Made by a program: the position numbers and the translations under genes. This document shows, in pieces, positions 3,299 through 64,000 of a stretch of DNA of 64,000 bases; the stretch's first letter is position 1, and each line of letters opens with the position of its first letter. A model generated the notes under the pieces. The model was not told where the DNA came from, did not search any database, and saw only the letters and a list, made by a program, of their open reading frames with translations. Location of the stretch: NCBI GenBank assembly GCA_965221205.1, contig OZ244870.1:1218232-1282231 (forward strand), read 5' to 3'. Source of the stretch: a bacterium (GTDB taxonomy: Bacteria; SM23-31).

Positions 3299-4300
3299 AT
3301 GGAAGGTCTCAAAGTCGGTATAGTCGGTGTCGGGCATCTCGGTGAGATGCATCTCAAGAAGCTGTTGAGTATTCCCGAAGCAGAGTTTGTCGGTTTCTGG
3401 GATAATGACGAAAACATCCGGGCTGAAAAGTCGCAAACATACAATGTTCATGCATTTGATTCGCTTGATTTACTTCTCGATGCAGTAGATGTGGTGAGTA
3501 TCGTTGTGCCGACATCCGCACACGCAGCAGTTGCTGTTGCTGCCGCCGAACAGGGTGTCCATATCTTTGTCGAAAAGCCGATAGCTCCTAATCTTGAAGA
3601 AGCGGATATAATAATTGAAGCAGCAGGGAAAAACAATGTTAAGCTCCAGGTAGGCCACATCGAGCGGTTTAATGCGGCATTCAGAAACCTAAAAAAGAAC
3701 CTCGTCAATCCCCGGTTCATTGAATCACACCGCCTTGCTTCGTTCAATCCGCGTGGACTTGACGTGTCGGTCGTCCTCGATCTCATGATCCATGATCTCG
3801 ACATCATTCTCAGCCTCATGAAATCTCCTCTCAGGCAAGTTGATACGAGTGGTGTTGCCGTAGTTTCATCCAATCCGGACAGTTTTGATATTGTTAATTC
3901 CCGGCTGACGTTTGAAGACGGCGCGGTGGCAAACGTGACCGCAAGTCGGATTTCGCAGACGAAGATGCGCAAGATGCGTCTCTTCCAGCAGGACAGCTAC
4001 ATCTCGATGGATTTTCTGACCGGTGAGGCAGAAGTGTTCCGGATGCACGACCCGGATTCTCAGGACAACGAAAACGGCATGCTGTCGGTCATGTCGATCA
4101 ATCACGAAGATTTCAATAAAAATGTCGGTTATAAAAAAATAGCCAATGACGGACGAGACTCTCTCGAACTCGAGCTCCGGTCATTTTTCGAATCGGTCAA
4201 AAACGATACCGAGCCGCTCGTGACAGGCGAACAGGCGCGCGCCGTACTCGCAACTGCCCTCAACATCGCCGCCAAAACCATTTCTCATATCACAAAGTAG
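3299..4300 (+). CDS. Gfo/Idh/MocA-family NAD(P)-dependent oxidoreductase
   Basis: Rossmann N-terminus KVGIVGVGHLGEMH, an EKP motif (IFVEKPIA) and GHIERFN. Substrate unknown. Confidence 0.8.
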   Translation: MEGLKVGIVGVGHLGEMHLKKLLSIPEAEFVGFWDNDENIRAEKSQTYNVHAFDSLDLLLDAVDVVSIVVPTSAHAAVAVAAAEQGVHIFVEKPIAPNLEEADIIIEAAGKNNVKLQVGHIERFNAAFRNLKKNLVNPRFIESHRLASFNPRGLDVSVVLDLMIHDLDIILSLMKSPLRQVDTSGVAVVSSNPDSFDIVNSRLTFEDGAVANVTASRISQTKMRKMRLFQQDSYISMDFLTGEAEVFRMHDPDSQDNENGMLSVMSINHEDFNKNVGYKKIANDGRDSLELELRSFFESVKNDTEPLVTGEQARAVLATALNIAAKTISHITK

Positions 4301-4359
4301 TTCAGTATCTAAAAATCACAATGCTTTTTAAAGATAAATATTGCATAGCTGTAATTAAG

Positions 4360-5128
4360 TTAGGTAATTAGGTCAAAAGCGGACTAACGTGAATTTTGAT
4401 TAAAGGAATGGTATAGATTTCGGTTTCTGTAATTGTATCTCCCTTCCATTTCCTTGCGGTATACCAGGCAATGACTTTTGCTGACACCATGGTACTGTAA
4501 GCGTCTTTCTTGTGCACATGACCAGAAAACCCCTCAAGGCCGTTACTATGACGACGTCCCGTGATGCACTATGTGTTATGATCGACCGTACGCTGTTTAC
4601 CAAAAAACTTCAGCGATGTATACGAACGGAACGTATCAGTGTAGAAGGCGCTCCCTTGCTCAGCGGTGTCCCTGATCTCGTTCATCAAGCGGCAGTCACA
4701 TCGTAGTAAATAGCTTCCCGTGGCGTTCCACCATGCCGAAAACCTTTGGTTCCCGTACGTTTCCCACCAAAGCAGCGTGCATCACATTCTATCTCGCCGG
4801 AAAGTCTTCTCAATCCTGAAATCATAAATCTTCTGTCGATAAAGCATCTATTTGCCTCGCACCGTCGTGGAGCCAAAACCAAGATCCATGGCAGCTTTAT
4901 TGGCAGGTATCTCCAAAGAAACATAATGCAGTAGAGCAAGATCGTCCTTGAACCGCTTCGGGCTCTCTTTACAAGAACATCGAGTACATGTAAAACGATT
5001 ATCACGCAAACGGTATAGACGATCCCCAGAACAAAAGGGATATGATGTACCAACAATAAATCTAGTGACTTTTTCTTCCATTTCAAGTATACTGTAACAC
5101 TTGATCCGAAAATAACCTAAGTACCTAA
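4360..5128 (-). mobile_element. decayed compact IS1595-family element (transposase in at least 3 frames with stops)
   Basis: 14-bp terminal inverted repeats: TTAGGTAATTAGGT (4360-4373) and ACCTAAGTACCTAA (5115-5128), 13/14 complementary. Between them, minus-strand fragments resemble the intact copy at 19.1 kb: a zinc-ribbon-like piece (YPFCSGDRLYRLRDNRFTCTRC), GEIECDARCFGGKRTGTKG (compare VEVDESYFGAKRIKGKRG) and IITHSASRD...TLTVPW. Confidence 0.65.
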
Positions 5129-5248
5129 ATTTATTTACTTGTCACTGCAAAGAACAAAGTGACGCGACAATCTCTGATTCCGTTAAGATTTAAAACAATT
5201 GAATAAAACCCCCGAAGCAGAGGTACTTTATAGACGAAAGGTATCATC

Positions 5249-5650
5249 TTGAAATTGATCGATAAACTCCGTGCACGGCGGGAAGCACAGCAATTCCTCA
5301 GCAGCCTCGAAAAAGCGACAGAGTCGGGACTGCCCGTGGAAATAACCTGTGAAGAGGTTAAAGAACTTCTCGGCAACGGCACCGAATTCATTCTGCTCGA
5401 TGTCCGGGAGAAACGGGAGTGGGACCTCGTAAAGATTGAGGATGCTGTTCTTTGCCCCATGAGCAACTTCATATGCGACATGGAAAAACTCGACAGCTCG
5501 AAACTTATCGTTACCTACTGCCACCACGGTATCCGTAGTTTCCAGGCAATGTGCATCCTCCGCAATAACGGATTTCCTAATGTTCGCAACATGACCGGCG
5601 GCATCGATCTCTACGCGCAAAAGGTGAATACGGATATGAAGCGGTATTAA
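5249..5650 (+). CDS. single-domain rhodanese (sulfurtransferase-like)
   Basis: LLDVREKREW and the active-site loop YCHHGIRS (CxxGxR). TTG start in the track. Confidence 0.8.
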   Translation: MKLIDKLRARREAQQFLSSLEKATESGLPVEITCEEVKELLGNGTEFILLDVREKREWDLVKIEDAVLCPMSNFICDMEKLDSSKLIVTYCHHGIRSFQAMCILRNNGFPNVRNMTGGIDLYAQKVNTDMKRY

Positions 5651-5741
5651 AAAGATAGACTCTAATTTTAATGCATTAGAGTCTATTGCGGCATTTAATA
5701 ATTGCAAATGATTTTAGATATAGAACTTGAAAAATAACTCA

Positions 5742-6259
5742 CTACCTATCCAAACACGTCACAACCTCACCCACATACATTCGGTGCATGGAAAGTTCGG
5801 GGAAGAGAAACATTTCTTTGAGGATTGCCGGGAGGATTGCCGGATAGAGAATGTTTTACCGGGCACGGTACTGCGTATAGATTTTCTACATATAATCACG
5901 AGCTGTGTTTCTGAAAAATAGACTGTTTTCGACGGTCCCGCAACCGGTGTGATCCCTGCCTGTTCGACTTTATTCACATCCCGTCCCAAAATCTTTCCGC
6001 TATACTTGAGCATCTCCCTATGTTTCGGCTCGAAAAATAAAAGGGTATAATAGTCCGATTTTTCCATGAATTCATACGTATACCAGTCGGGACGCACATA
6101 ACAGGTCCGCCATAGATCGCTGAATCCGCCCCAGCTTCTGGTCATTGTATTGAACGAATCCATCGATCCCGCAGTCAGCAGGAACCAGTTTCCGCCAAAC
6201 AGTTTAAACGAATTGTCTTTGAGTTCTTCAGGTTTCAGTTCTTGAAATGCCGTTTCCAT
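5742..6259 (-). pseudogene. flavin reductase-like (FMN-binding split-barrel) gene with a disrupted C-terminus
   Basis: The N-terminal 120 aa (FKLFGGNWFLLTAG..FNTMTRSWGG..YTYEFMEKSDYYTLLFF..GRDVNKVEQAGITP) fit the family. After VIICRK the expected end (KIYTQ...HRMYVGEVV..*) is in another frame: the shift is at the T4 run 5882-5885. That frame holds an in-frame TAA (complement of 5856-5858) and a 12-bp duplication. Confidence 0.6.
5820..5843. repeat. perfect 12-bp tandem duplication GAGGATTGCCGG x2 inside the flavin-reductase-like pseudogene
   Basis: Read directly from the sequence. It adds 4 codons (PAIL PAIL in the reconstructed frame). Confidence 0.9.
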
Positions 6260-6306
6260 AGTAACTTCAATAGTATCATACGTGTTAATCAGTTTGCATC
6301 TATTTT

Positions 6307-7590
6307 TTACGTGATAGATGTAAGCGATTTTTCGTGCGCTTCTATCGTCTTGTCAATATCGTCTTCCGTATGTGCTGATGAGATAAATCCGGCTTCGAAC
6401 TGTGACGGTGCCATATAGATACCCTCTTCGAGCATCGCCTTGAAATATTGTGTGAACCGTTCGGTATCACAGTTCATTGCCGAATCGAGATCGGTCACTG
6501 GTGTCCCGGTAAAGAACCGGCACATCATCCCGCCGATCCGGTTTTGCTGCATGAGGATGCCGTGCTTTTCAGCACCCTGTGCAACACCATCAGCAAGCTG
6601 TGCGGCTAATTTTTCGAAGTGTGGATAGGGATTTTCGTCTTTAAGCGTCTTTACTGTCGCCAGTCCTGCCGCCATGGCAAGCGGATTTCCGGCGAGTGTT
6701 CCCGCCTGATAGACCGGGCCGTCCGGCGCAATGGTGTCCATAATATCTGTCCTTCCGCCATATGCTCCTACTGGCAGTCCTCCGCCGATAATCTTGCCGA
6801 GGCAGGTCAGATCGGGTTTGATACTGTATAGTTCCTGCGCTCCGCCGAGTGCAACTCTGAATCCGGTTATCACTTCGTCAAAAATCAGGACAATTCCAGC
6901 TTTATTGGAAATCATCCGTAGCCCTTCGAGAAATCCATTTACCGGAGGAATAACTCCGGTATTTCCGGCAATCGGCTCGATAATAATCGCCGCAACCTGT
7001 TCCGGATTTGCCGCAACGATTTCTTGAACCGATTCAATATGGTTGAACTGAGCGATTAGTGTGTCGGATGCGGTTCCTTTTGTTATGCCCGGATTGCCGG
7101 GAATACCGAGTGTCAGGGCACCGGAACCCGCCTTGATGAGAAAACTGTCGCTGTGTCCGTGATAGCATCCGTCGAATTTAATAACCCTATCCCGCCCGGT
7201 AAACCCCCGCGCAAGCCGGACCGCGCTCATGGTTGCCTCGGTACCCGAATTGACCATGCGGATTTTGTCAATGGACGGGTATATGTCGATGATAAGCCGT
7301 GCAAGTTCGATCTCCATTTCGGTCGAAGCTCCGTAGCTCGTTCCATTTTTTGCCGCTTCGGAAACAACTTCCACAACATGCGGATGAGCATGACCGAGAA
7401 TGAGTGGCCCCCACGAGGCGACATAATCAATGTATTTGTTTCCGTCGGCATCATAAATATTCGAGCCCTCGGCACGGCTGATAAAAAGCGGATCCATATT
7501 GACCGACTTGAATGCCCGTACTGGCGAATTCACTCCGCCCGGTATATACTTTTTCGCTTCTGCAAAAAGTCTTGATGAATTTTCATACAT
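6307..7590 (-). CDS. hemL: glutamate-1-semialdehyde 2,1-aminomutase
   Basis: YIPGGVNSPVRAF, DEVITGFR and GKIIGGGLPVGAYGG. I prefer the start at the ATG at 7590 (MYENSSRLF) over the tracked 7635. Confidence 0.92.
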   Translation of the reverse strand: MYENSSRLFAEAKKYIPGGVNSPVRAFKSVNMDPLFISRAEGSNIYDADGNKYIDYVASWGPLILGHAHPHVVEVVSEAAKNGTSYGASTEMEIELARLIIDIYPSIDKIRMVNSGTEATMSAVRLARGFTGRDRVIKFDGCYHGHSDSFLIKAGSGALTLGIPGNPGITKGTASDTLIAQFNHIESVQEIVAANPEQVAAIIIEPIAGNTGVIPPVNGFLEGLRMISNKAGIVLIFDEVITGFRVALGGAQELYSIKPDLTCLGKIIGGGLPVGAYGGRTDIMDTIAPDGPVYQAGTLAGNPLAMAAGLATVKTLKDENPYPHFEKLAAQLADGVAQGAEKHGILMQQNRIGGMMCRFFTGTPVTDLDSAMNCDTERFTQYFKAMLEEGIYMAPSQFEAGFISSAHTEDDIDKTIEAHEKSLTSIT

Positions 7591-7641
7591 AATATGCTTC
7601 CCTATACGAAAATAAATGTAGTCATTCTGAAACAACCATAA

Positions 7642-8581
7642 TCAATTAAAAGTGTTGCGCATCCACTCAATTAGCTGAACCAAAACTACCATATAAATAA
7701 AATGAGCAACATAGAGAGCGGTTTTTAGGCTGAGCTGATATTCCTGCTCAGTCCTCTCTATAAAATAATCAAGATTTTTGTCAAATTCACCACTAATTTC
7801 CTGAACATTAAAAAGAGTTGTTAATTCTGCTGAAAAATAAGGATTTTCACTGATAGCTTCGGATACTTTTTCACCTCTTTCAACACGTATCCCGATGGCA
7901 CGAATTCTATCGGCATAGATTTTGTTTTGCACTGCATTGCCAATAAGCTGAAACACGTCGGCAATCGGAATTCCTGACTGGAAGAGGGGAATAAACAATT
8001 CGGCAAATTGTTTGTTGAGTATTTTTTTGTGCATTCCGCCAACATACCACAGTTTCAGTCGGTTGGTGTCCCAGATCATCTTACCGGCGCCTTTGGTGAA
8101 AAATGATTTTGCCAGATCATATAGTAAAATCGCTGATATAAAAACCACAACACCTGTAATTATCATTTGCTCAGTAAGAATAATTACCAAAAAGCGAGAA
8201 AAACACTGCCGGATGCGATTAGTGAAAAAAACAATCTTCGGATACCTTTGAGAATTTTTGATTTGCAACCGGAGTTTTTTCACTTTTCAGATATTTCGAT
8301 AACCGGTTGAGTGTCTCCTGCAGAACGCCTGTAATTTCAGTAGCGTATATATTTTTGATATAATATTCAGGAAAGATTTCAGGGTAGTTTTTGATAGCCT
8401 TTGAAAGCGGGTTGCCTTTTTCAAGATCGAGAGCAATAGGATATGCAGCATTTTTTATTTCTTTGCTTAGGGAAACATTATTTGATTTCCGCTTAAACAG
8501 TGCGTGAAAAAAAGCTTGACTGGTTTTATCGACTTTGAAGAGTATTTGCACATAAGCTGTTTGAGATTTCTCGAGATGCAA
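7642..8581 (-). pseudogene. type II secretion / type IV pilus platform (GspF/PilC, T2SS-F domain) -like protein, split by a frameshift in an A6 run
   Basis: Two ORFs (8219-8581 and 7642-8283) each carry one T2SS-F-like repeat: GNPLSKAIKNYPEIFPEYYIKNIYATEITGVLQETL and GEKVSEAISENPYFSAELTTLFNVQEISGEFDKNL. They overlap at the homopolymer 8275-8280. A one-base change would fuse them to about 320 aa. This could be a sequencing error. Confidence 0.6.
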
Positions 8582-8636
8582 ATCTATTGAGATATGAAAA
8601 CTCTAAATGACAAACGAAAGTTACCGAGGCCTAATC

Positions 8637-8690
8637 ATTCCATTAATGTGCAATAATCAATGTAATTGTTCTGATCTCGATTAATGGAAT
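8637..8690. repeat. perfect 11-bp inverted repeat ATTCCATTAAT / ATTAATGGAAT separated by 32 nt
   Basis: Read directly. It lies in the 240-bp gap between hemB and the T2SS-F-like gene, with no U-tract on the transcribed (minus) strand. Confidence 0.5.
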
Positions 8691-8821
8691 TTTAACTCTG
8701 TTGATGATTGTTCAGTATTCGCAATGATAAAAATAGAAGAAATTATATTAGGACATTCCCAGTAACAGATAAAGAAAAAAATGTATCAGAACGTTTCAGT
8801 TCCGGAATTTTTTGTAACTCA

Positions 8822-9793
8822 CTATTTCAGCATTGCTGCGGCATCTTTCGCAAAATAGGTCAGGATGAGATCTGCACCGGCGCGTTTGATGCCGGTTAAT
8901 GATTCCATTACGACCCGGTCTTCATCGAGCCAACCCTTTGCTGCGGCTGCCTTGATCATCGAATATTCACCGCTCACATTATATGCTGCGACAGGAATAA
9001 AGAATTCCCGTTTGACCCGGCTGATAATATCAAGATAGGGAAGAGCAGGCTTGACCATGACAATATCGGCGCCCTCATCGATATCGAGCGCAGTTTCTCT
9101 GAGCGCTTCTTCTGCGTTCGGGGGGGCAATCTGATAGGATTTCCGGTCTCCGAATTGCGGGATCGAATCCGCTGCATCACGGAACGGGCCGTAAAATGCC
9201 GAAGAATATTTCGCTGCATACGCCATGATCGGGGTGTTGGAAAATTCTTTAACGTCGAGCAAATCACGGATGTAACCGATTCGCCCGTCCATCATATCGG
9301 ATGGAGCTACCATATCTGCCCCGGCACGTACATGGCTCAACGCTATTTTACCGAGCAATTCAAGCGTTTTGTCATTGTCAACTTCACCGTCAACAATTTT
9401 ACCGCAATGGCCGTGGTCTGTATACTCACACATACACACATCGGTAATCAGTACGAGTGACGAAACCGCCTTTTTCACTGCCCGGAGTGCTTCCTGTACG
9501 ATTCCGTTATCTGCATATCCCTCTTTACCGAGCGGATTTTTGTGCTCTGGAATACCAAAAAGGATCACCGCCGGAATACCAAGCTGTTCGACAGCTTTAC
9601 ATTCCTCAACTAGTTCATCGACCGACAACCTGAATTGTCCCGGCATCGACGGAATTTCTTCTTGGACCTTTTTTCCCGAGCATACAAAAAGCGGGTAGAT
9701 CAGATCGTCAACGGACAATTTTGTTTCGCGTACCATTCTCCGCAGGGTTTCACTCGTGCGAAGGCGCCGCAGCCGTGTAATTGGAAATGTCAT
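8822..9793 (-). CDS. hemB: porphobilinogen synthase (delta-aminolevulinate dehydratase)
   Basis: 323 aa with RLRR near the N-terminus, [14 protein letters not shown] (Zn-type cysteine cluster) and [11 protein letters not shown] (active-site Lys). Confidence 0.93.
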
Positions 9794-13861: not shown

Positions 13862-14833
13862 ATGAATTTTTTGAAAAATTTTCGCACACGTACCGAAAGC
13901 TCGCACCGGTGGAAATTATATCTGTTTGCAGGTGTAGTATTATATTACGTTATTGTAAACATATTTATCATACTGCGGCCTGATCATGTATTCCTGACGC
14001 TCCTCCTCCTTACGTTTTTGCTCGGCGGTGATAAAGCAAAGTGGTTTCTCATCGATTGGCTCCCGTATATCGGATTCTGGATTGCCTACGATATGATGCG
14101 GGGTGTTGCCGATGGCTGGAAAGGGTATATCAATATTCGGGAGGTGTACGATACCGAAATATTGCTGTTCGGCAGTTTTTTCAATGACACACTTCCCGCA
14201 TTCTGGTTTCAGCAGTTTCAGCAGGCAAATGAGCCCTATTTCTGGAAGCAGATTGTCGATCTCCTTGCTGCTAACTTCTACAGCGCACATTTTTATGGTC
14301 CGCTTATTCTAGGTTGGCTGCTTTGGCACACTTACGATGACCGGAGAACTTACTACCGTTTTGTATGGACGTTGACCGTTTTAAACGCTATGGCACTCGC
14401 TACTTTTTTTGTCTATCCTGCAGCACCGCCGTGGTATGTGCTGCGGCACGGATTTGTGCAGCCCGTTGGTGAAATATTCGGTATGGAGGGAGGACTCATC
14501 AATATTGACAATATGATCGAAATGAAGTTATTCTCGACCGTATGGAGAAATATGAATTCAAACCTTTTCGCAGCAATTCCATCATTGCACGGTGCCTATC
14601 CGATGGCGGTCTCATTCTTTGCCTGGTTTAAGTTCAAAAAATACCCACAACTCCTCATTCTTTATCCGATCCTCGTTTGGTGGTCGACTGTCTATCTGAA
14701 CCACCACTATATTATAGATCTGATTATTGGGGCAGTGTATGTAGGAGTCGCCTACCTGATAAACCAATATATTTTAATGTCCTATGTATTTGATCCGCTG
14801 CTGTTTCGGAAACGGAAACCTGAAAATAAGTGA
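13862..14833 (+). CDS. PAP2-superfamily integral membrane protein (PAP2_3 / inositol-phosphoceramide-synthase-like)
   Basis: About 7 TM segments. C2/C3 phosphatase motifs PSLHGAY and YLNHHYIIDLIIG. ATG at 13862 (the tracked TTG is at 13856). Confidence 0.7.
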   Translation: MNFLKNFRTRTESSHRWKLYLFAGVVLYYVIVNIFIILRPDHVFLTLLLLTFLLGGDKAKWFLIDWLPYIGFWIAYDMMRGVADGWKGYINIREVYDTEILLFGSFFNDTLPAFWFQQFQQANEPYFWKQIVDLLAANFYSAHFYGPLILGWLLWHTYDDRRTYYRFVWTLTVLNAMALATFFVYPAAPPWYVLRHGFVQPVGEIFGMEGGLINIDNMIEMKLFSTVWRNMNSNLFAAIPSLHGAYPMAVSFFAWFKFKKYPQLLILYPILVWWSTVYLNHHYIIDLIIGAVYVGVAYLINQYILMSYVFDPLLFRKRKPENK

Positions 14834-14858
14834 TCTGCTGTTGAAATCTTACCAGAAC

Positions 14859-15812
14859 TTACAAACCTGCCTGCTTGTAGGCATCAAACACAATAGACAA
14901 ATCTCTTTTTGCTCGTGGGAAATTTGAGTAGGGCGTGTGTTCAGGATTGTACAGACACTGCATGAAATCCTGTGTCATAGCGTGATGTCCTCCGATATCT
15001 TTCAGGGATGGAAATGTGAGTTTCCGTTTTCTGTGAGCACGTACTAGAATATAAATTCCGTTACTCTCAAACACAATTTTGCCTTCTGTACCAGCGATTG
15101 TCGAGTGCTGGAAAATCCCCTTTGTCAGGCTCGGAGTTTCCCACGAGTAACGGAGAGTAGCAGAAACATCATTCTGATACCGCAAAGTAAGAACAGAATT
15201 CTTTTCAGGAGATGAGGAACTGATGTTCGAAAATTCAGCTTCGATCGTTTCTGGTGAGTCTTCAAGTATTCCGGATAACAAAGCGACAAAATGAATTCCA
15301 CCTTCATGCAAAGCTCCATACGCTTTTTTCCATCCTGAAGGTGGTGCCATGAATTCTTTCCGAATTAAAATATTGATAATTCGGCCGATTGTATTGTTCC
15401 GAATGAACTTTTTTATTGCCGTTAGCAAAGGTTTATAATAGTAGTTCTCAGCGACCATCAGTCGTTCAGGCTGGCCGTGTGCAGCGGCCTCAATCTCATC
15501 AAGTTCCTGTGCCGAATTACAGAGTGGTTTCTCAACAAGAACGTACTTTTCTGCTTGAAGCGCCTCAATAGTCTGGTCCTTATGATACTCCGGTGGTGAA
15601 GCGATCACAACAGCATCCACCTTGCTAGAGGTAATGACCTCATCGTAATTGGTAAAAATACCGACACCGCTGAATTTTCGGTTAAAATGTTCAGAACTCT
15701 GTGCAGTCCGGCTGTAGAACATCAGATTTGCAGAGCGTGACAGATTCTTCGCATGGAGAGCACCGATTGCTCCGCATCCTACAATACATACGATTTTTTT
15801 ACGAGAAGTCAT
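14859..15812 (-). CDS. Gfo/Idh/MocA-family oxidoreductase
   Basis: IVCIVGCGAIGALHA Rossmann motif and VLVEKPL. It overlaps the upstream GMC gene by 14 nt. Confidence 0.8.
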   Translation of the reverse strand: MTSRKKIVCIVGCGAIGALHAKNLSRSANLMFYSRTAQSSEHFNRKFSGVGIFTNYDEVITSSKVDAVVIASPPEYHKDQTIEALQAEKYVLVEKPLCNSAQELDEIEAAAHGQPERLMVAENYYYKPLLTAIKKFIRNNTIGRIINILIRKEFMAPPSGWKKAYGALHEGGIHFVALLSGILEDSPETIEAEFSNISSSSPEKNSVLTLRYQNDVSATLRYSWETPSLTKGIFQHSTIAGTEGKIVFESNGIYILVRAHRKRKLTFPSLKDIGGHHAMTQDFMQCLYNPEHTPYSNFPRAKRDLSIVFDAYKQAGL

Positions 15813-17325
15813 TCATAGTCCTGATGATATGGTCGGAGACACGCAGTGCGTTTGCTGTAATAGTCAGACTCGGATTCACTCCTGCCGATGTCTGCATAAA
15901 GCTTCCGTCAAGAACAAACAAATTATTGATACCGTGAAAAGTGCAGTTTTTGTCGAGGACACTTGTACGCGGATCGCTCCCGAACCGCACCGAACCGACA
16001 GCATGTGAAAATGTAGGGGGTGTTTTTTCATCAATTTCGTGCACTAACGTAATAAGTGATCCTGATCTTCTGAGAATTTTCCTTGCGTGATGTACTAAGT
16101 AATTCCGCCGCATCAGATCGTTTCCCGTAAAACGGTGTTTGACAGTTATGGTTTCAATACCATACATATCTTTTTGACCCGACAACACTACCTTGTTATC
16201 GAAAACGGGATCGTCTTCAGCTATGCATATTAGGTTTTGGCAGCTGCTTGCTGCTAAAAGGGAAGCTGTTTTGAGACCTGCCGGTATATAATATTTTACA
16301 ATTTCACCTGTCGGCATGTAGATGTCCTGTATCATACCGACAGACGTATTCAGTTTTTCGCGGAAATCTTCGTAAAAATGTGTGATGCCGACCTGCTTCT
16401 GGAATTCGTTCATCGGGTTGGTTTTAAACGGAAATACACCAGTTACTATTGCGCTGCAATGACGCATCAAGTGGGTGCCGATTTTCTTTGAATTTGGATA
16501 ATTTTCCAAACGTGACCGCAATAAAATTCCCGGGCTGTGAAGCGTACCTGCGCTGACTATAACAATTCGTCCAGATATCGAATGCCTCTTTTGGTGTTTT
16601 TTATCTATATATTCTATTCCGGTAATAGTCCCGCTTTTCTCGCAGACCCGGTCGACAATAACGCCTGTAATAATTTCACAATTGTGTTGTTGAGCTTTAG
16701 CGAGGAGCGTGGTCGCAGCATCATTTTTAGCCTCAATCTTACATGGATAACCATCGCAAGTCGTACACTGAATACAGACTTTACGTGAGTTATTATTAAA
16801 ATTGATAGCGAGTGGAAGTTTGAAAGGACGGAATCCGAGCATTTCTGCGGCATTGAAAATTCGCTGAGACGGTTTTGATAAGGGGATCCCTTTATGAAAA
16901 TAGTCGGTGTTCCGGGGAGGGTCGAATGGATCGGCACTGGTTTCCCCGGAGACTTCAAGGATTTGTTCCGCCTCGGTATAGAATGATTCGAATTCATCAT
17001 ATGATACCGGCCAGGAATTGAAATCTTTCTCTCTAAACCGTACTGCGGCACCGCCGAAAAAAACTGAATTTCCCCCGACCACTTCGTTGAGAAAGACCTT
17101 TCGCAGTGAAGCATTGGAATTTTGATTGACAAATACCGGTGAGTCGCTTTTATAACGTCTCTCAATGAGGATTTCACGGGGATTCCAGTCGGTATCGTCG
17201 CGTTTTGCCCAACCGCCTTTTTCGAGCAAGACCGTCTTTAACCCTGCTTTCGACAGAGCATAGGCAGCCGCTGAACCGCCGAATCCTGAACCGATAATTA
17301 TGGCATCATACCGTCTGTAATTCAT
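15799..17325 (-). CDS. GMC-family FAD-dependent oxidoreductase
   Basis: YDAIIIGSGFGGSAAAYALSKAGLKTVLLEKG (FAD ADP-binding fold). The C-terminal HAVGSVRFG...NLFVLDGSFMQTSAGVNPSLTI is typical of the GMC C-domain. Confidence 0.85.
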   Translation of the reverse strand: MNYRRYDAIIIGSGFGGSAAAYALSKAGLKTVLLEKGGWAKRDDTDWNPREILIERRYKSDSPVFVNQNSNASLRKVFLNEVVGGNSVFFGGAAVRFREKDFNSWPVSYDEFESFYTEAEQILEVSGETSADPFDPPRNTDYFHKGIPLSKPSQRIFNAAEMLGFRPFKLPLAINFNNNSRKVCIQCTTCDGYPCKIEAKNDAATTLLAKAQQHNCEIITGVIVDRVCEKSGTITGIEYIDKKHQKRHSISGRIVIVSAGTLHSPGILLRSRLENYPNSKKIGTHLMRHCSAIVTGVFPFKTNPMNEFQKQVGITHFYEDFREKLNTSVGMIQDIYMPTGEIVKYYIPAGLKTASLLAASSCQNLICIAEDDPVFDNKVVLSGQKDMYGIETITVKHRFTGNDLMRRNYLVHHARKILRRSGSLITLVHEIDEKTPPTFSHAVGSVRFGSDPRTSVLDKNCTFHGINNLFVLDGSFMQTSAGVNPSLTITANALRVSDHIIRTMNDFS

Positions 17326-18109
17326 AAAAGAAAAGAATACAAAGACCGAAAATAATGATTAATGCTGTATAATGAAACTTTTCACGAGTGTCTAATTGTT
17401 TCTGAATTCTCTCAAGATCGGGCTTGAATTTGCCCGACATGTTTCTCTGGATATACGTTTTATAATATTCCACAATAAACCGTTCCAGACCAAAATTCAT
17501 ACACGTGAGAATACCGAGCGATGTTGGACCAAACAGATAAAACAGAAAGAAAAAAGGACTGAGCACGACCGGGGATTTTTGAAATTTTAAAATTTTAAAA
17601 CCCTCGAACGGTGCATCTTTATATGCCCCACCTATCGAAACAAGCATTCCCGCAGCATACGAAACAAGAAAAAATTCCAGTGCAGTGGTGATCGTTGTAT
17701 CAACGAGAATAAGCAAAAATGTTCCAAGAATAAGGCAGACTCCCACACTTTTTCTGAGAAGGTCGTTTGTCACATAGGAACCGAAAAATGTTATTCTCGA
17801 AGGAACAAAATATTTTGCCTGATCTTCTGTGCGGAAAAAACCTTTATAGAATTCCGCTATGGCTCGTTCCATACCCATCGTCAAGAAGAAAATCTGGAAG
17901 AAATTGAGCGAAGATATCCGTCCCCAAAAGACCGGACACGTATAAAGCATGAGAAAGATCACCACATTAAAATAGATGCTGCGAGGGAAAGTTTTCTTTT
18001 TGAACTCTTCATAAGGACAGTCTTTAAATGCACCCCAAAGAGATGTATACAATCCAGAAATCGAGCTGACTACAAGCGATAGTAAAATAGATGTCATAAA
18101 GCGTTTCAA
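17306..18109 (-). CDS. uncharacterised polytopic membrane protein with an internal two-fold repeat
   Basis: Repeat 1 is GAFKDCPYEEFKKKTF...GMERAIAEFYK. Repeat 2 is GAYKDAPFEGFKILKF...GLERFIVEYYK. It overlaps the GMC gene start by 20 nt. I recognise no family. Confidence 0.6.
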   Translation of the reverse strand: MKRFMTSILLSLVVSSISGLYTSLWGAFKDCPYEEFKKKTFPRSIYFNVVIFLMLYTCPVFWGRISSLNFFQIFFLTMGMERAIAEFYKGFFRTEDQAKYFVPSRITFFGSYVTNDLLRKSVGVCLILGTFLLILVDTTITTALEFFLVSYAAGMLVSIGGAYKDAPFEGFKILKFQKSPVVLSPFFFLFYLFGPTSLGILTCMNFGLERFIVEYYKTYIQRNMSGKFKPDLERIQKQLDTREKFHYTALIIIFGLCILFFYELQTV

Positions 18110-18274
18110 TCCGTCAATGTGTAAAGTGAACAGAAAAAAGGATGCTCATTCTTGAAAATGTGTACCCTTATATCGATGATTTTTCAGGAACATAGGGACC
18201 TTAATTGAGTAACTGGTTAAACAAAGAGTGTATGCGACAATGTGTTATTCGCTGCTCCTCCTTATATGTGGATG

Positions 18275-18769
18275 CTATTGGATTTTTCTTATTTCCTCAT
18301 ACATGTGACAGATTCTGTTGAGTATGTTTTCGGAAAAATTAGGAAGAAATTTTGTGCATATTGCGGGATAATTATTAAGGATATCCAAAAAATCGGGCCG
18401 GAATAGAGAGAACACTTCCGTATGTTCAGTGGCGATTACCGATGCTGTTCGCTGCCTGGCTTTTAAAAGGGTCAATTCACCGAAAAATGAACCCCCAGAC
18501 ATTTTTGCAAGTTCGATTTGCCTACCCTTGACAGTATTATATACTTTAACCTCTCCAGAATGTACTAAATAGAGTCCGATTGCCGCATCTCCTTTGTTGA
18601 CAATGAGTTCTCCCGCTCTGAAACGTCTTCTGTATACATTACGCTCGATAATAGACGCCCCAAGAGGTGAAAGAGACTTGAATATCTCAAAGTGTAAAAT
18701 ATCATTGGGTTGATTGGTTTCGGTTTGATTTTTCTTTTTGCTATGCAATATGAGTGGATTATGAACCAT
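18275..18769 (-). CDS. stand-alone cyclic-nucleotide-binding (cNMP/Crp effector) domain protein
   Basis: FRAGELIVNKGD..GLYLVHSGEVKV...FFGELTLL..RTASV is the classic cNMP-binding beta-barrel. There is no HTH after it. I prefer the ATG at 18769 over the tracked TTG at 18796. Confidence 0.8.
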   Translation of the reverse strand: MVHNPLILHSKKKNQTETNQPNDILHFEIFKSLSPLGASIIERNVYRRRFRAGELIVNKGDAAIGLYLVHSGEVKVYNTVKGRQIELAKMSGGSFFGELTLLKARQRTASVIATEHTEVFSLFRPDFLDILNNYPAICTKFLPNFSENILNRICHMYEEIRKIQ

Positions 18770-19097
18770 TACTATACTCCGGGATACTCCGGGCAAACGA
18801 TATATATTTAGGTGATCATTCAGCAGGCGATATGCTTGCTTGTAGTGTCCCGTTATTGCCTTATCCTCGATTGTTTCTAAGTCAATTAAGTCAATAAGGT
18901 AAAAAAATAAGTTTCAGAAATGAAATAAATTTTTTCCTCAATGTCAAAAAGAGTTTTCAGAAAAATTCAGAATGGGTTCTCGGTAAAAAATTATGAATAA
19001 CTCTGCACAACAGATGTACTTAGAGATAGAAGGGACAGTAAAATTCTGTTACAAAACTGTTGTAAATGGCTTAACAAATTATTATAATTAAACAATG

Positions 19098-19833
19098 GGT
19101 CCTGACTAGTTTAGAGAAATTTGATATACTCTAAATATAGTTAAGACAATGAGTTACAGGTACAAAAAACGCGCGCACATTTCTGGGCGAAAATTTCGAT
19201 TACTTTTAGAGTATTTTTCATTAGATTTAGATGCACTGACTATATCAAAATTAGCCAGGTTAAATCGCAATACGGTCAACAAGTATCTCCGTCTTTTTAG
19301 GGAACGCATAGTAGAGTTGTGCGATCGTGATTCTCCCTTTAAAGGTATTGTTGAAGTAGATGAATCTTACTTTGGCGCTAAACGAATTAAAGGTAAACGA
19401 GGTCGAGGAGCAAGTGGGAAAACACCGGTTTTTGGAATTCTTCAACGGGGCAGTACAATATATACAGAAGTTGTTCCCGATTGTGCTAAACGTACGCTTC
19501 AAGCTATAATTCGAGGCAGAGTCGATCCCGAGAGCATCATCCATTCCGATCCCTGGAGAGGATATTACGGCCTGGTCGATATGGGTTATAAAAAACATTT
19601 TCGCATTCACCATGGTAACGATGTATTCTCTAATGAGAAAAATCACATTAATGGTATCGAGTCTTTCTGGTCCTTTGCAAAAAGACGATTAGAAAAATTT
19701 CATGGAATTTCCAAATCAACGTTTCATCTACATCTTGAAGAATGTGAATTCCAGATTTAATAACAGAAACAATAACATCTATAAACTATTATTACAAAAT
19801 ATCAACGCTAAACCTCTAAACTAGTCAAGAGCC
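19098..19833 (+). mobile_element. compact (736 bp) IS1595-family insertion sequence
   Basis: Imperfect terminal inverted repeats: GGTCCTGACTAGTTTAGAG (19098-19116) and CTCTAAACTAGTCAAGAGCC (19814-19833), sharing a 14-nt core TGACTAGTTTAGAG. There is a single DDE ORF inside whose end runs into the right repeat. I see no clear target duplication. Confidence 0.8.
19149..19824 (+). pseudogene. IS1595-family (ISXO2-like DDE) transposase with a +1 frameshift 23 codons before its natural end
   Basis: VEVDESYFGAKRIKGKRGRGASGKTPVFGI, HSDPWRGY and NGIESFWSFAKRRL. The track ends at ECEFQI* (19760). Dropping one C at 19751-19752 restores ECEFRFNNRNNNIYKLLLQNINAKPLN* ending at 19824, which is the family's usual E.EFRFN end. 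Confidence 0.7.
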
Positions 19834-60832: not shown

Positions 60833-61620
60833 ATGTATTACCGAGAAGCTGACTCAGCGTCAAAGTACCCTCTTGTTTTCATACATGGCTTTCCACTGAA
60901 TCATACTATGTGGAATCCCCAATTGGAGACGCTTCCTGAGGGTGTCCGGGCAGTAGCGTACGATGTCCGCGGTCACGGTAATAGCAGTGTTGGTGATGGT
61001 CAATTCTCTCTGGAGTTTTTGTTGACGATCTAATCGGACTGCTTGACCATCTTAAAGCAAAAAAAGTAATTCTTTGTAGTTTATCGATGGGAGGTTACAT
61101 TGCGCTCCGGGCTGTTGAGTGTCATCCGGAACGGTTCATGGGACTAGTCCTGTGCGATACGCAGAGCTATGCTGATGCTAATGAAACAAAGATCAAGCGG
61201 GCTAATGTGATCCGGTTAATCAAAAACGGCGGTATCAAAGAGTTTGCCGACAATTTCATAAATTTGATCCTTGCTAAAAAAACCGTCAGTGAGAACAAAA
61301 AGGTAGTAGAGCAGCTTCGCGATATGATACTGCACAACGATCCACTCGACGTATGTGGTACCTTCATGGCACTTGGAGCACGGACAGACACATCACAGGC
61401 GTTGCCATCTTTTTCTCTTCCTGTCTCGATTATTGTGGGAGAAAACGATGCGTTGACTCCGTCGTCAATGTCTGATTTTAGGCACAAAAAAATCCCCCAT
61501 CCGGAATTGAATAGTATACCAGCGGCTAGTCACATGGGCAACATGGAAAACGTGGAGGCATTTGACGAAGTTTTGTATCGATTTGTTGCTAATGTGATGA
61601 ACGATCTTAGTGATAATTGA
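60833..61620 (+). pseudogene. alpha/beta-fold hydrolase split by a frameshift in a T5 run
   Basis: PLVFIHGFPLNHTMW..YDVRGHGNS (ORF 1) continues as FVDDLIGLLDHLKAKKVILCSLSMGGYIA (GxSxG nucleophile elbow) in the frame of ORF 2 if the T run 61016-61020 is one base longer. This may be a sequencing error. Confidence 0.7.
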
Positions 61621-61663
61621 GAAGCTCTCACACTGCCGTTTCAAATGCAGAAAATACCTGCGT

Positions 61664-61737
61664 TTCTCCACATTTTATCCACTTATTATCCACTTAAAAT
61701 TCTCCACTTTTCCACGCAAATTTACTTTTTATACACA
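61664..61737 (+). promoter_or_regulatory. array of six same-strand DnaA-box-like 9-mers
   Basis: TTCTCCACA (61664), TTATCCACT (61675), TTATCCACT (61686), TTCTCCACT (61700), TTTTCCACG (61708) and TTATACACA (61729), compared with the consensus TTATCCACA / TTATNCACA. Confidence 0.6.
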
Positions 61738-61826
61738 CCTGAGAAATGTCCTTGTATTTCGAGCGATATATGGTTACTATCAACAAACTCAATACTTGTT
61801 TGTGAACATGTAATTTTGAGCATACC

Positions 61827-62606
61827 ATGCCATCTGCCGTAAGCAGAACAGACCTGATTAAAACCTATTTACAGCAGCAAAAGGAATTATTCGGAGATAC
61901 AGTATATCTGGGGCAGTCGAGAGGAGAAGAAATCGGAAAAACAACATATGATGACCCGTCCGAAAGCACGAATAATGATGTGTGGCTAATATCAGATGTG
62001 GGAACTGGGAATGCATGGAAGAATGAATCATGGCGCGCAATTGACGACCTTGAAGAGTTTCATAATGCAATATCAGGCTGCATGCAGTGCTCACTTGGAG
62101 AAACACGGAATAGATTTGTATTTGGAAGCGGAAATCCTCATGCTGATTTGATGTTTATAGGAGAAGCGCCAGGAGCCGATGAAGATAAGAAAGGAATTCC
62201 GTTTGTCGGTCGTGCCGGGCAGCTACTCGATAAAATATTAAGCGCAATTGATCTTGAACGCTCGGATGTCTATATTGCAAATATATTAAAATGCAGACCA
62301 CCTCAAAATCGTGATCCGCAGTCGGGAGAAATTGCCTGCTGTGAACCGTATCTACTGCACCAGATTAAACTGATTAATCCGGTCCTGATGGTAGCGTTGG
62401 GAAGGATTGCCGCCCAGACATTGCTGAGAACGACCGAAACACTCGGTGCAATGCGTGGCAAGATTCATGACTACCACGGAACCGATCTCATGGTCACGTA
62501 TCATCCCGCAGCATTGTTGCGAAATCCCAATTTCAAGCGTCCAGCCTGGGAGGACATGAAAGAGATAAAGCGGCTTTATTTGGATAAACGGAATAATGTT
62601 GAATAG
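61827..62606 (+). CDS. udg: family-4 uracil-DNA glycosylase
   Basis: GCMQCSL..R...[41 protein letters not shown] and HPAALLRNP. Confidence 0.88.
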
Positions 62607-62675: not shown

Positions 62676-64000
62676 ATGGATAAAACAGAACTGAAAGAAC
62701 GGATACCACCGCAGGCAGACGATTTTGAAAAAGCGCTTCTTGGGGCAGTTATGCAGTATAAGGATGCGGTTTTTCAGGTGATGGAACTCCTGAAACCGGA
62801 ACAATTTTATAAGACGGCTCACCAGAAGATATTTAGTGCAATATGTGCACTCTTTAATAAGAATGATGCAATCGATGCGTTAACAGTCGGTGAGCAACTA
62901 AAAAAAGATGGTGAATATGATAATATAGGAGGGGGGTATTATCTCACCGAATGCCTGGAGCAAGAAATGACATTTGCTAATGTGGAATATTACGCAAAGG
63001 TCATTCTGGAAAAGGCTATGCTCCGGAGTATGATCGAAATATCTCGCGATATCATGGATTCGGGATATGAAGGTCGGGAAGATGCGCAATCACTGCTTGA
63101 CGAAGCGGAGCGAAAGATCATGAGCATCGGTGAAATCGGTATGAAAACCGGTTTCGAAAATATCAGACCGATCCTCCATAATACAATGGACATTCTCGAT
63201 AAAAACAATAATCGGGACGGACATCTTATCGGTATATCCTCGGGATTTACAAAACTTGATGAATTAACGGCCGGGTTTCAGAATTCAGATTTAATTATTA
63301 TTGCCGGCCGGCCATCAATGGGGAAAACCGCATTCAGTCTCAATCTTGCCCGATATGCTGCTGTCGAACACAAAATTGCAGTTGGGTTTTTCAGTCTCGA
63401 AATGTCAAAATTTCAGCTCGCTTCGCGGCTGCTCAGTTGTGAAGCGCGAATCGATTCGAACAACCTTCGCCGGGGAAGGCTCCAGAAAAAAGAGTGGCCG
63501 GAATTAGCCGCTGCCGCCGGAGCGCTGTCGGATGCTCCGCTCTTTATCGACGACACACCATCTCTGAGTGTGTTTGAATTACGGGCAAAAGCGCGTCGTT
63601 TAAAGATAGAACATAATATGGGACTGATAGTTGTTGACTATCTACAGCTTATGCAGGGGTCGTACGGCAAAGAGAGTAGGCAGCAGGAAATCGCTGAAAT
63701 ATCCCGGTCATTAAAAGCTGTTGCCAAAGAGCTTGAACTCCCGGTTATGGCTCTCTCTCAACTCTCTCGTCAGCCAGAATTGCGCGGCGGCAAGAGAAGA
63801 CCGATGCTCTTCGACCTGCGTGAATCAGGAGCTATTGAACAAGATGCTGATGTGGTTATTTTCATCTATAGGCCTGAGGTTTATGATATTGAGTCTGATG
63901 AAAATGGACGTTCAACCGAAAACGTTGCAGAAATTATTATTGGAAAGCAGCGTAATGGACCGACGGGAACCATTTACCTTACCTTCCTCAAAAACACTGC
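62676..64000 (+). CDS. dnaB: replicative DNA helicase DnaB (3' end beyond the window)
   Basis: Absent from the ORF track because it has no stop in the window. My translation reads MDKTELKERIPPQADDFEKALLGAVMQYKD..FYKTAHQKIFSAI ... IIIAGRPSMGKTAFSLN (Walker A) ... VVDYLQLM ... ALSQLSR. Confidence 0.92.
   Translation, partial: MDKTELKERIPPQADDFEKALLGAVMQYKDAVFQVMELLKPEQFYKTAHQKIFSAICALFNKNDAIDALTVGEQLKKDGEYDNIGGGYYLTECLEQEMTFANVEYYAKVILEKAMLRSMIEISRDIMDSGYEGREDAQSLLDEAERKIMSIGEIGMKTGFENIRPILHNTMDILDKNNNRDGHLIGISSGFTKLDELTAGFQNSDLIIIAGRPSMGKTAFSLNLARYAAVEHKIAVGFFSLEMSKFQLASRLLSCEARIDSNNLRRGRLQKKEWPELAAAAGALSDAPLFIDDTPSLSVFELRAKARRLKIEHNMGLIVVDYLQLMQGSYGKESRQQEIAEISRSLKAVAKELELPVMALSQLSRQPELRGGKRRPMLFDLRESGAIEQDADVVIFIYRPEVYDIESDENGRSTENVAEIIIGKQRNGPTGTIYLTFLKNT

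Follow-up and report, generated by a model that had tools for sequence, protein, structure and literature searches.

What does a dense cluster of DnaA-box-like 9-mers do directly upstream of the genes for a uracil-DNA glycosylase (udg) and the replicative helicase (dnaB)? An earlier note on this DNA had left open three readings, i.e. the core of a replication origin, a site of the datA/DARS type and DnaA-controlled transcription of udg. Here, we examined the window, i.e. the whole stretch of 64,000 nucleotides that contains the cluster, together with the corresponding loci of relatives.

Six head-to-tail 9-mers in the gap upstream of udg

The six DnaA-box-like 9-mers that had been described at 61664-61737, all on the + strand, were confirmed to the base, as were the 206-bp gap between an alpha/beta-hydrolase gene and udg in which they lie (61621-61826), the 11-bp start spacing of the first three boxes (61664, 61675 and 61686) and the one or two mismatches per box (1, 1, 1, 2, 2 and 1 to TTATCCACA for boxes 1-6). 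The features of the region are the following, with slots measured from the first base of the predicted -35 hexamer.

61664..61672, + strand: box 1, TTCTCCACA, a DnaA-type 9-mer; slot -88
61675..61683, + strand: box 2, TTATCCACT; slot -77
61686..61694, + strand: box 3, TTATCCACT; slot -66; tandem pair with box 2, 2-bp gap
61700..61708, + strand: box 4, TTCTCCACT; slot -52; 2 mismatches, out of helical phase
61708..61716, + strand: box 5, TTTTCCACG; slot -44; one base in common with box 4
61729..61737, + strand: box 6, TTATACACA; slot -23; centre about -54 from the predicted transcription start
61752..61757, + strand: predicted -35 hexamer, TTGTAT; hexamers and 17-bp spacing kept across lineages
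61775..61780, + strand: predicted -10 hexamer, TACTAT; part of the same conserved TTGnnn-17-TAnnnT match
61827..62606, + strand: udg, family-4 uracil-DNA glycosylase, 259 aa (Pfam PF03167, E = 3.7e-39)
62676..64000, + strand: dnaB, replicative helicase (Pfam DnaB and DnaB_C, E = 7.7e-106)

The boxes start 11, 11, 14, 8 and 21 bp apart, with 22 bp from box 3 to box 5 and 21 bp from box 5 to box 6. Boxes 1, 2, 3, 5 and 6 (offsets 0, 11, 22, 44 and 65) thus share a helical phase, from which box 4 deviates. Pairs of boxes 2-3 bp apart are formed by boxes 1-2 and 2-3 and also occur in the relatives L002, L005, L007, L008 and L091, and a box on the opposite strand was found in none of the arrays of the window and its relatives.

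The 8-mer TTNTCCAC is not over-represented in the window, in which both strands together hold 11 matches versus 9.7 +/- 3.1 in dinucleotide shuffles; 5 of the 11 matches are concentrated in the 52 bp at 61664-61715. The array has six boxes with at most two mismatches per 100 bp, every other 100-bp segment of the stretch has at most three, and the tandem pair TTNTCCAC-N3-TTNTCCAC is unique to the array in 679 kb of fetched loci. An 8-mer count, which had been proposed as a check on whether the cluster is exceptional, therefore gave, when run within the window, an ordinary total and no comparable box cluster elsewhere there. Chance as the source of the array was rejected: the motif occurs at an ordinary frequency and is clustered to an unusual degree. 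Finally, Rfam and tRNA scans of the window gave no match, i.e. no RNA element that accounts for the repeats.

The start of dnaB lies 69 bp downstream of udg, and the window holds the first 441 of its codons (the full length is 464 aa in the independent Logan assembly L001). Of 84 related loci, 36 have dnaB as the gene immediately after udg, and the string (yicC-gmk-)coaBC-udg-dnaB-relA/spoT(-HU-ruvX-lnt) is widely conserved in FCB-group-like metagenome contigs. The genes for a family-4 uracil-excision enzyme and the replicative helicase have persistently remained neighbours. The window also carries housekeeping genes for heme synthesis as well as hflX, rho, prfA, the RNase R gene, dnaK and clpB, together with a Bat/MoxR aerotolerance cluster, yicC, gmk and coaBC. 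The UDG and BatA-like proteins of the window have their nearest named relatives in candidate division KSB1 and, after it, in Ignavibacteriota, Marinimicrobia and Bacteroidota. The host belongs to an uncultured lineage of the FCB group (Fibrobacterota-Chlorobiota-Bacteroidota), probably to candidate division KSB1.

Two further observations concern the flanks of this region. The alpha/beta-hydrolase gene upstream of the array (60833-61620) is split into ORFs of 66 aa and 177 aa by a 1-bp deletion in a T run, which causes a frameshift near 61018; in the sister species, the gene is intact and encodes 271 aa. Because the same deletion is present in L001, the gene is probably a real pseudogene and not the product of an assembly error. 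Downstream of dnaB, relatives have two relA/spoT paralogues (L005, 12498-16874), whereas the window's genus (L001, 9883-13217; L002, 11488-18979) has - strand genes for a Por_Secre_tail protein, a beta-helix protein and a 1468-aa protein instead. The replacement of the paralogues by these genes points to a rearrangement breakpoint immediately after dnaB in the window's genus.

Register of the boxes with a predicted promoter across lineages

The closest relative is a sister species, represented by the complete circular MAG chromosome OZ252239.1 (L002; 3.78 Mb), which has about 92-94% DNA identity to the window and is collinear with it over the region; its array lies near 1,262,832-1,262,894. 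Of the six boxes, this chromosome retains five, having lost box 1 to a 12-bp deletion. All 5 within-box substitutions between the window and the sister species fall at positions 3, 5 and 9, and none at positions 1, 2, 4, 6, 7 or 8. Positions 3, 5 and 9 are the tolerant positions of DnaA boxes. From this pattern, the box cores (T1, T2, T4, C6, A7 and C8) are under purifying selection.

Four further lineages were reached via UDG homologues with 60-64% identity, i.e. L005 (a 3.62-Mb chromosome), L007/L090, L008 (the KSB1 genome GCA_042563365.1) and L091. They have the gene order yicC-gmk-coaBC-[gap]-udg-dnaB without the hydrolase gene; in L005, L007, L008 and L090, the gap follows coaBC immediately. 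The gap directly upstream of udg contains 3-6 same-strand boxes (TTTTCCACA or TTATCCACA; TTWTCCACA) in each of them and is otherwise unalignable with that of the window. In an unbiased k-mer count over the 95 bp upstream of the -35 hexamer in the five independent lineages, TTTTCCAC was the sole 8-mer found in all (9 copies), followed by TTATCCAC. Position 9 is A in 21 of the 32 boxes of the window and its relatives.

Beyond these lineages, the boxes were not found. Among 80 metagenome UDG loci, 32 have dnaB directly after udg, and a + strand box within 450 bp upstream was present in none of the 32. Similarly, L092 and L093 (UDG identity of 57-58%) have no boxes and no real gap, and in relatives with the order yicC-gmk-(coaBC)-udg-dnaB-relA and a UDG identity below about 58%, boxes are absent and there is almost no gap. 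By this distribution, the array is a conserved, lineage-specific addition to a much older udg-dnaB pair that arose within one sub-clade.

The boxes are followed by a conserved match to TTGnnn-17-TAnnnT. It was picked out after the boxes had been seen and is the single match in the gap of the window; 5 of the 6 relatives also have a single match per gap, and L002 has a second match inside the box array. Across the lineages, the conserved pattern is TTGnnT, 17 bp and TAnnAT, with a spacer whose sequence varies. Hexamers and slots are as follows.

Window: TTGTAT-17-TACTAT; slots -88, -77, -66, -52, -44, -23
L002: TTGCAT-17-TACTAT; slots -77, -66, -52, -44, -23
L005: TTGCAT-17-TATAAT; slots -77, -66, -44, -23
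L007: TTGTAT-17-TATTAT; slots -78, -67, -23 (box at -67 degenerate)
L090: TTGTTT-17-TATTAT; slots -78, -68, -45, -23 (box at -68 degenerate)
L008: TTGATT-17-TATAAT; slots -56, -45, -23
L091: TTGCTT-17-TATTAT; slots -67, -56, -45, -23

Hexamers at a fixed spacing with a free spacer are the signature that a sigma70-type promoter would be expected to leave, and we infer from this signature that the hexamers form a working promoter. The predicted transcription start lies near 61787, which would give a 5' leader of about 40 nt. The window hexamers match the sigma70 consensus at 8 of 12 positions, a consensus that is generic and may not be that of this candidate phylum; with this score, the predicted udg promoter was not listed in a generic sigma70 scan of the window. 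The same scan gave a - strand 'promoter' at 61714-61685, which is a mere reverse complement of the boxes and was discarded. A promoter of the Bacteroidetes type (TTTG ... TAnnTTTG) near the ATG was also dropped; between TTTG at 61799 and TAATTTTG at 61811 there are only 8 bp, too few for the elements of such a promoter.

The boxes and the hexamers are in a fixed register. The proximal box is separated from the -35 hexamer by a constant 14 bp, and in the window both hexamers lie clear of the boxes. A box starts exactly at -23 in all five independent lineages, for which the probability under random placement is about 5e-5. Moreover, the lineages share the slot set -23, -44/45, -56, -66/67, -77/78 and -88, which steps back by 11 or 22 bp. 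Cross-lineage slot coincidences within +/-1 bp number 26 for the five independent lineages versus 5.8 +/- 2.2 for random placement, and 26 coincidences were reached in 0 of 20,000 trials with random placement and in 0 of 20,000 trials with a rigid shift of each array. The slot of box 4 (-52) is filled only in the window and the sister species, and that of box 1 (-88) is the least conserved, being lost in L002.

This register bears on the possibility that the array is a DnaA reservoir or nucleotide-state site of the datA, DARS or B. subtilis cluster type without a role of its own in udg-dnaB transcription. Such a site could be expected to look like a dense same-strand box cluster outside any recognisable origin, and the number of boxes (six in the window, 3-6 in relatives) is of the order of the at least four boxes that define such control sites. 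The core of DARS contains an opposed third box, and datA and DARS2 contain an IHF site; an opposite-orientation box as in the DARS core is absent here. A reservoir also has no reason to keep a single-base register with the -35 hexamer across five lineages, or to stay by udg after the hydrolase gene had separated coaBC from the array, and relatives have as few as 3-4 boxes. In fact, the hydrolase gene is confined to the window's genus, where it separates the array from coaBC, so the array has stayed attached to udg. B. subtilis has six clusters outside oriC, some of which also regulate their neighbours (PMC3245932). Altogether, we regard a reservoir without its own role in transcription as unlikely.

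The repeats could also be the operator of another lineage-specific regulator, e.g. of the OmpR/PhoB type, with a coincidental likeness to DnaA boxes. Proteins of this type bind direct repeats with an 11-bp period next to a -35 hexamer, and 11-bp direct repeats abutting a promoter, as found here, are the architecture of winged-helix response regulators; the confinement of the array to one sub-clade would also fit. Against this reading, TT[A/T]TCCACA is a DnaA box at all nine positions, including the accepted variants TTATNCACA and TTTTCCACA, and the tolerance at positions 3, 5 and 9 mirrors DnaA-box degeneracy. Moreover, the target gene encodes the direct partner of DnaA, which is bound upstream of dnaB in two other phyla. 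We therefore consider a different regulator improbable. Going by the motif alone, the protein that binds the boxes would be DnaA, and the suggestion in the earlier note of a DnaA oligomerisation-type array is supported by the motif, the 11-bp spacing and box cores conserved across five lineages.

The array and the chromosomal origin

In the origin reading, this lineage would use the array as the core of its chromosomal oriC, or as one half of it, and a DnaA oligomer formed there would open the DNA next to it. The box cluster itself speaks for this possibility: with six boxes in 74 bp, it has no counterpart elsewhere in the window and is by far the densest in about 70 kb, and such a box density is typical of oriC in most bacteria. 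The 11-bp head-to-tail phasing is that of the low-affinity arrays R4-C1-I3-C2-C3 and R1-tau-I1-I2 in E. coli oriC. As in those arrays, near-consensus and weaker 9-mers are combined head-to-tail with an 11-bp period, an arrangement suited to a polar DnaA-ATP oligomer. Also, origins can contain promoters. Unlike E. coli oriC, the locus has no opposed second array, no DNA-unwinding element, no DnaA-trios and no switch in skew or strand, and a predicted promoter takes the place of the unwinding element.

In the local sequence, GC skew is positive to the left and to the right of the array, also when the strands are separated. The + strand genes at 20-61 kb have a skew of +0.06 to +0.09 and the - strand genes at 38-41 kb a skew of about 0; on its right-hand side, the values are +0.11 for udg and dnaB and -0.012 for the - strand genes beyond dnaB (L001 and L002). 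Because the strand-wide skew has the same sign on both sides, the + strand appears to be leading-like across the array, with no flip. With an origin at the array, the 42 kb of + strand genes upstream (dnaK, clpB, rho and prfA among them) would meet the forks head-on. Similarly, all genes within 10 kb on either side in L005 are on the + strand.

The DNA next to the boxes also argues against an origin. The layout of the R1 box and the unwinding element in E. coli was the basis for the side on which we looked for trios, i.e. the downstream side of the boxes only. Using the rules from PMC8287927, in which a basal unwinding system consists of a box, a spacer of at most 16 bp and then at least three DnaA-trios (NAN), we detected no run of at least three NAN trios within 16 bp of the last box in six lineages. 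An AT-rich tract between boxes 5 and 6 is present, as had been noted, but comprises merely 12 bp plus the start of box 6 and does not resemble a DNA-unwinding element. The gap as a whole has a GC content of 35%, which is ordinary for intergenic DNA, and contains none of the 15 most AT-rich 200-bp segments of the stretch. The DNA after the last box is the predicted promoter, i.e. hexamer, spacer and hexamer, and neither the window nor L005 has an AT-rich spacer there.

Finally, all boxes have a single orientation, and relatives have as few as 3-4 of them. An origin at this site would have to have been relocated into a co-directional string of housekeeping genes; distant syntenic relatives lack both boxes and gap. 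Linkage of oriC to dnaA/dnaN or another indicator gene is common but not obligatory. In line with the absence of dnaA from the window, which had been noted before, tblastn with an approximate E. coli DnaA sequence as the query gave no hit in the window or in the 93 loci, 679 kb in all. In total, the array lacks an AT-rich unwinding element, a trio system, a switch in skew or gene orientation and a nearby dnaA, and distant relatives are box-free. We conclude that the array is probably not the replication origin of the chromosome, contrary to the proposal of an oriC core; as a core or half of oriC it is very unlikely.

The sole strand and skew switch of the window lies at about 14000-19100, where the skew changes from negative to positive and the genes from the - to the + strand, in the direction expected of an origin. 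The strand-wide skew also appears to change sign here, and the sister chromosome has the same switch (L094, about 4000-9550). At the switch, neither the window nor the sister chromosome has a DnaA-box cluster, a point in favour of the array as the origin. Possible explanations of the switch are the end of an old inversion, a boundary in base composition and an origin whose boxes are not recognised. The divergent intergenic region at the switch contains a small IS1595-family element (19097-19833; 737 bp), which encodes a DDE transposase of 203 aa, is bounded by 20-nt terminal inverted repeats and is missing from the sister chromosome (L094).

A variant of the origin reading is that the origin moved to the udg-dnaB promoter within the KSB1-like sub-clade, as a minimal unidirectional array without trios or an AT-rich element. 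In that case, transcription from the adjoining promoter would help to open the DNA, and the helicase would be made beside its loading site. No other box cluster was present in the approximately 70 kb examined, which is compatible with such a move, but the local skew and gene orientation argue against it, and we consider it highly improbable. A search of the literature on replication origins in KSB1 gave no result. For genomes of this kind, a search for the densest cluster in the style of Ori-Finder might mis-call the array as oriC.

Candidate control of udg-dnaB transcription by DnaA

Altogether, the array is likely a DnaA operator, i.e. a cis-regulatory site that acts on the udg-dnaB promoter. 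Thus, from among the readings offered by the earlier note, the comparative data, with their fixed register between boxes and conserved promoter, favour DnaA-controlled transcription of udg. The control would extend to dnaB because dnaB follows udg without a terminator; no terminator-like site was found between the two genes in the window.

The boxes have the layout of a DnaA-regulated promoter region. They end 14 bp upstream of the predicted -35 hexamer, and their position upstream of the orthologous gene is conserved in five independent lineages. DnaA is known as a transcription factor, with modes of activation and repression that are poorly understood; at the DnaA-regulated promoters nrdAB and dnaAp of E. 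coli, it activates or represses depending on its level and nucleotide state. Binding of DnaA outside the origin of E. coli needs box pairs 2-3 bp apart (Stringer, Fitzgerald and Wade 2024, PMC11317965), and boxes 1-2 and 2-3 form such pairs. As at E. coli double boxes and at nrdAB and dnaAp, tandem same-orientation boxes with a 2-bp gap lie in the promoter region of replication and repair genes; compared with E. coli double-box sites, the array here extends further, keeping strict phase with the -35 hexamer over about 90 bp.

In the mechanism that we propose, five or six boxes, aligned with transcription, would occupy the same face of the helix just upstream of the sigma70-type promoter. DnaA would nucleate on the tandem boxes with 2-bp gaps, probably as a cooperative oligomer of the ATP form, and the oligomer would then extend through the phased slots as far as the box nearest the promoter, which is centred near -54. 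At this box, DnaA would contact RNA polymerase and set the rate of udg-dnaB transcription according to the initiation potential of the cell. Titration of DnaA would be a by-product of this binding.

Activation is slightly favoured over repression, at little better than even. The lean to activation comes from the hexamers being free of boxes, the constant 14-bp gap, the likeness to a class-I activator and the positive DnaA dependence of replisome genes in Caulobacter. Two relatives have boxes that fit repression better than activation: in the 5' leader downstream of the predicted promoter, L091 has the extra boxes CTTTCCACA and TTATCCACA, 22 bp apart (141-171), and L008 has the extra box TTTTTCACA (6017-6025). 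These leader boxes hint that the sign or the strength of the regulation differs between lineages.

Sites outside the origin and upstream of the helicase gene have been described before. In Caulobacter crescentus, dnaB has predicted DnaA boxes upstream and is a member of the DnaA regulon (Hottes et al. 2005, summarised in PMC8203912). Similarly, DnaA of M. tuberculosis binds upstream of dnaB (the Rv0057 site, detected by IDAP-seq, PMC7738170). The array resembles these sites in that non-origin boxes upstream of the helicase gene would link the level of the initiator to the supply of the helicase. It differs from them in having 5-6 phased boxes (3-6 in relatives) versus one or a few, and in lying upstream of a udg-dnaB operon in an uncultured FCB-group lineage, where it is known from sequence. 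In B. subtilis, sda is activated from boxes in its promoter region (PMC3245932, PMC8203912). The array is also like the B. subtilis clusters outside oriC, in which several intergenic boxes bind much DnaA and regulate the adjacent gene; the target genes are different.

DnaA binding upstream of dnaB is thus already known, and what stands out here is the length of the array, its strict phasing and its independent origin. To our knowledge, six boxes exceed the number at most known DnaA-regulated promoters. The array would represent an independently evolved coupling of initiator to helicase in an uncultured FCB-group lineage. Moreover, it offers an evolutionarily replicated case, in which 3-6 boxes are kept in single-base helical register with a promoter while little other intergenic sequence is common to the lineages, and a phase-dependent contact between DnaA and RNA polymerase becomes directly testable at udg-dnaB.

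Two relatives have additional sequence features around the array and the operon. In L008, a 21-bp unit, GAAGCGAAGCCAGATTAAAAT, is present in approximately 2.5 tandem copies directly upstream of the first DnaA box (5860-5912). In L091, a 515-bp insert with an 81-aa ORF lies between udg and dnaB (931-1445) and contains a perfect 24-nt inverted repeat (CCGCAGAGTCGCAAAGACGCAAAG and its complement) around AT-rich DNA. The insert could be a MITE-like element or a terminator, and dnaB may be uncoupled from the udg promoter in this lineage.
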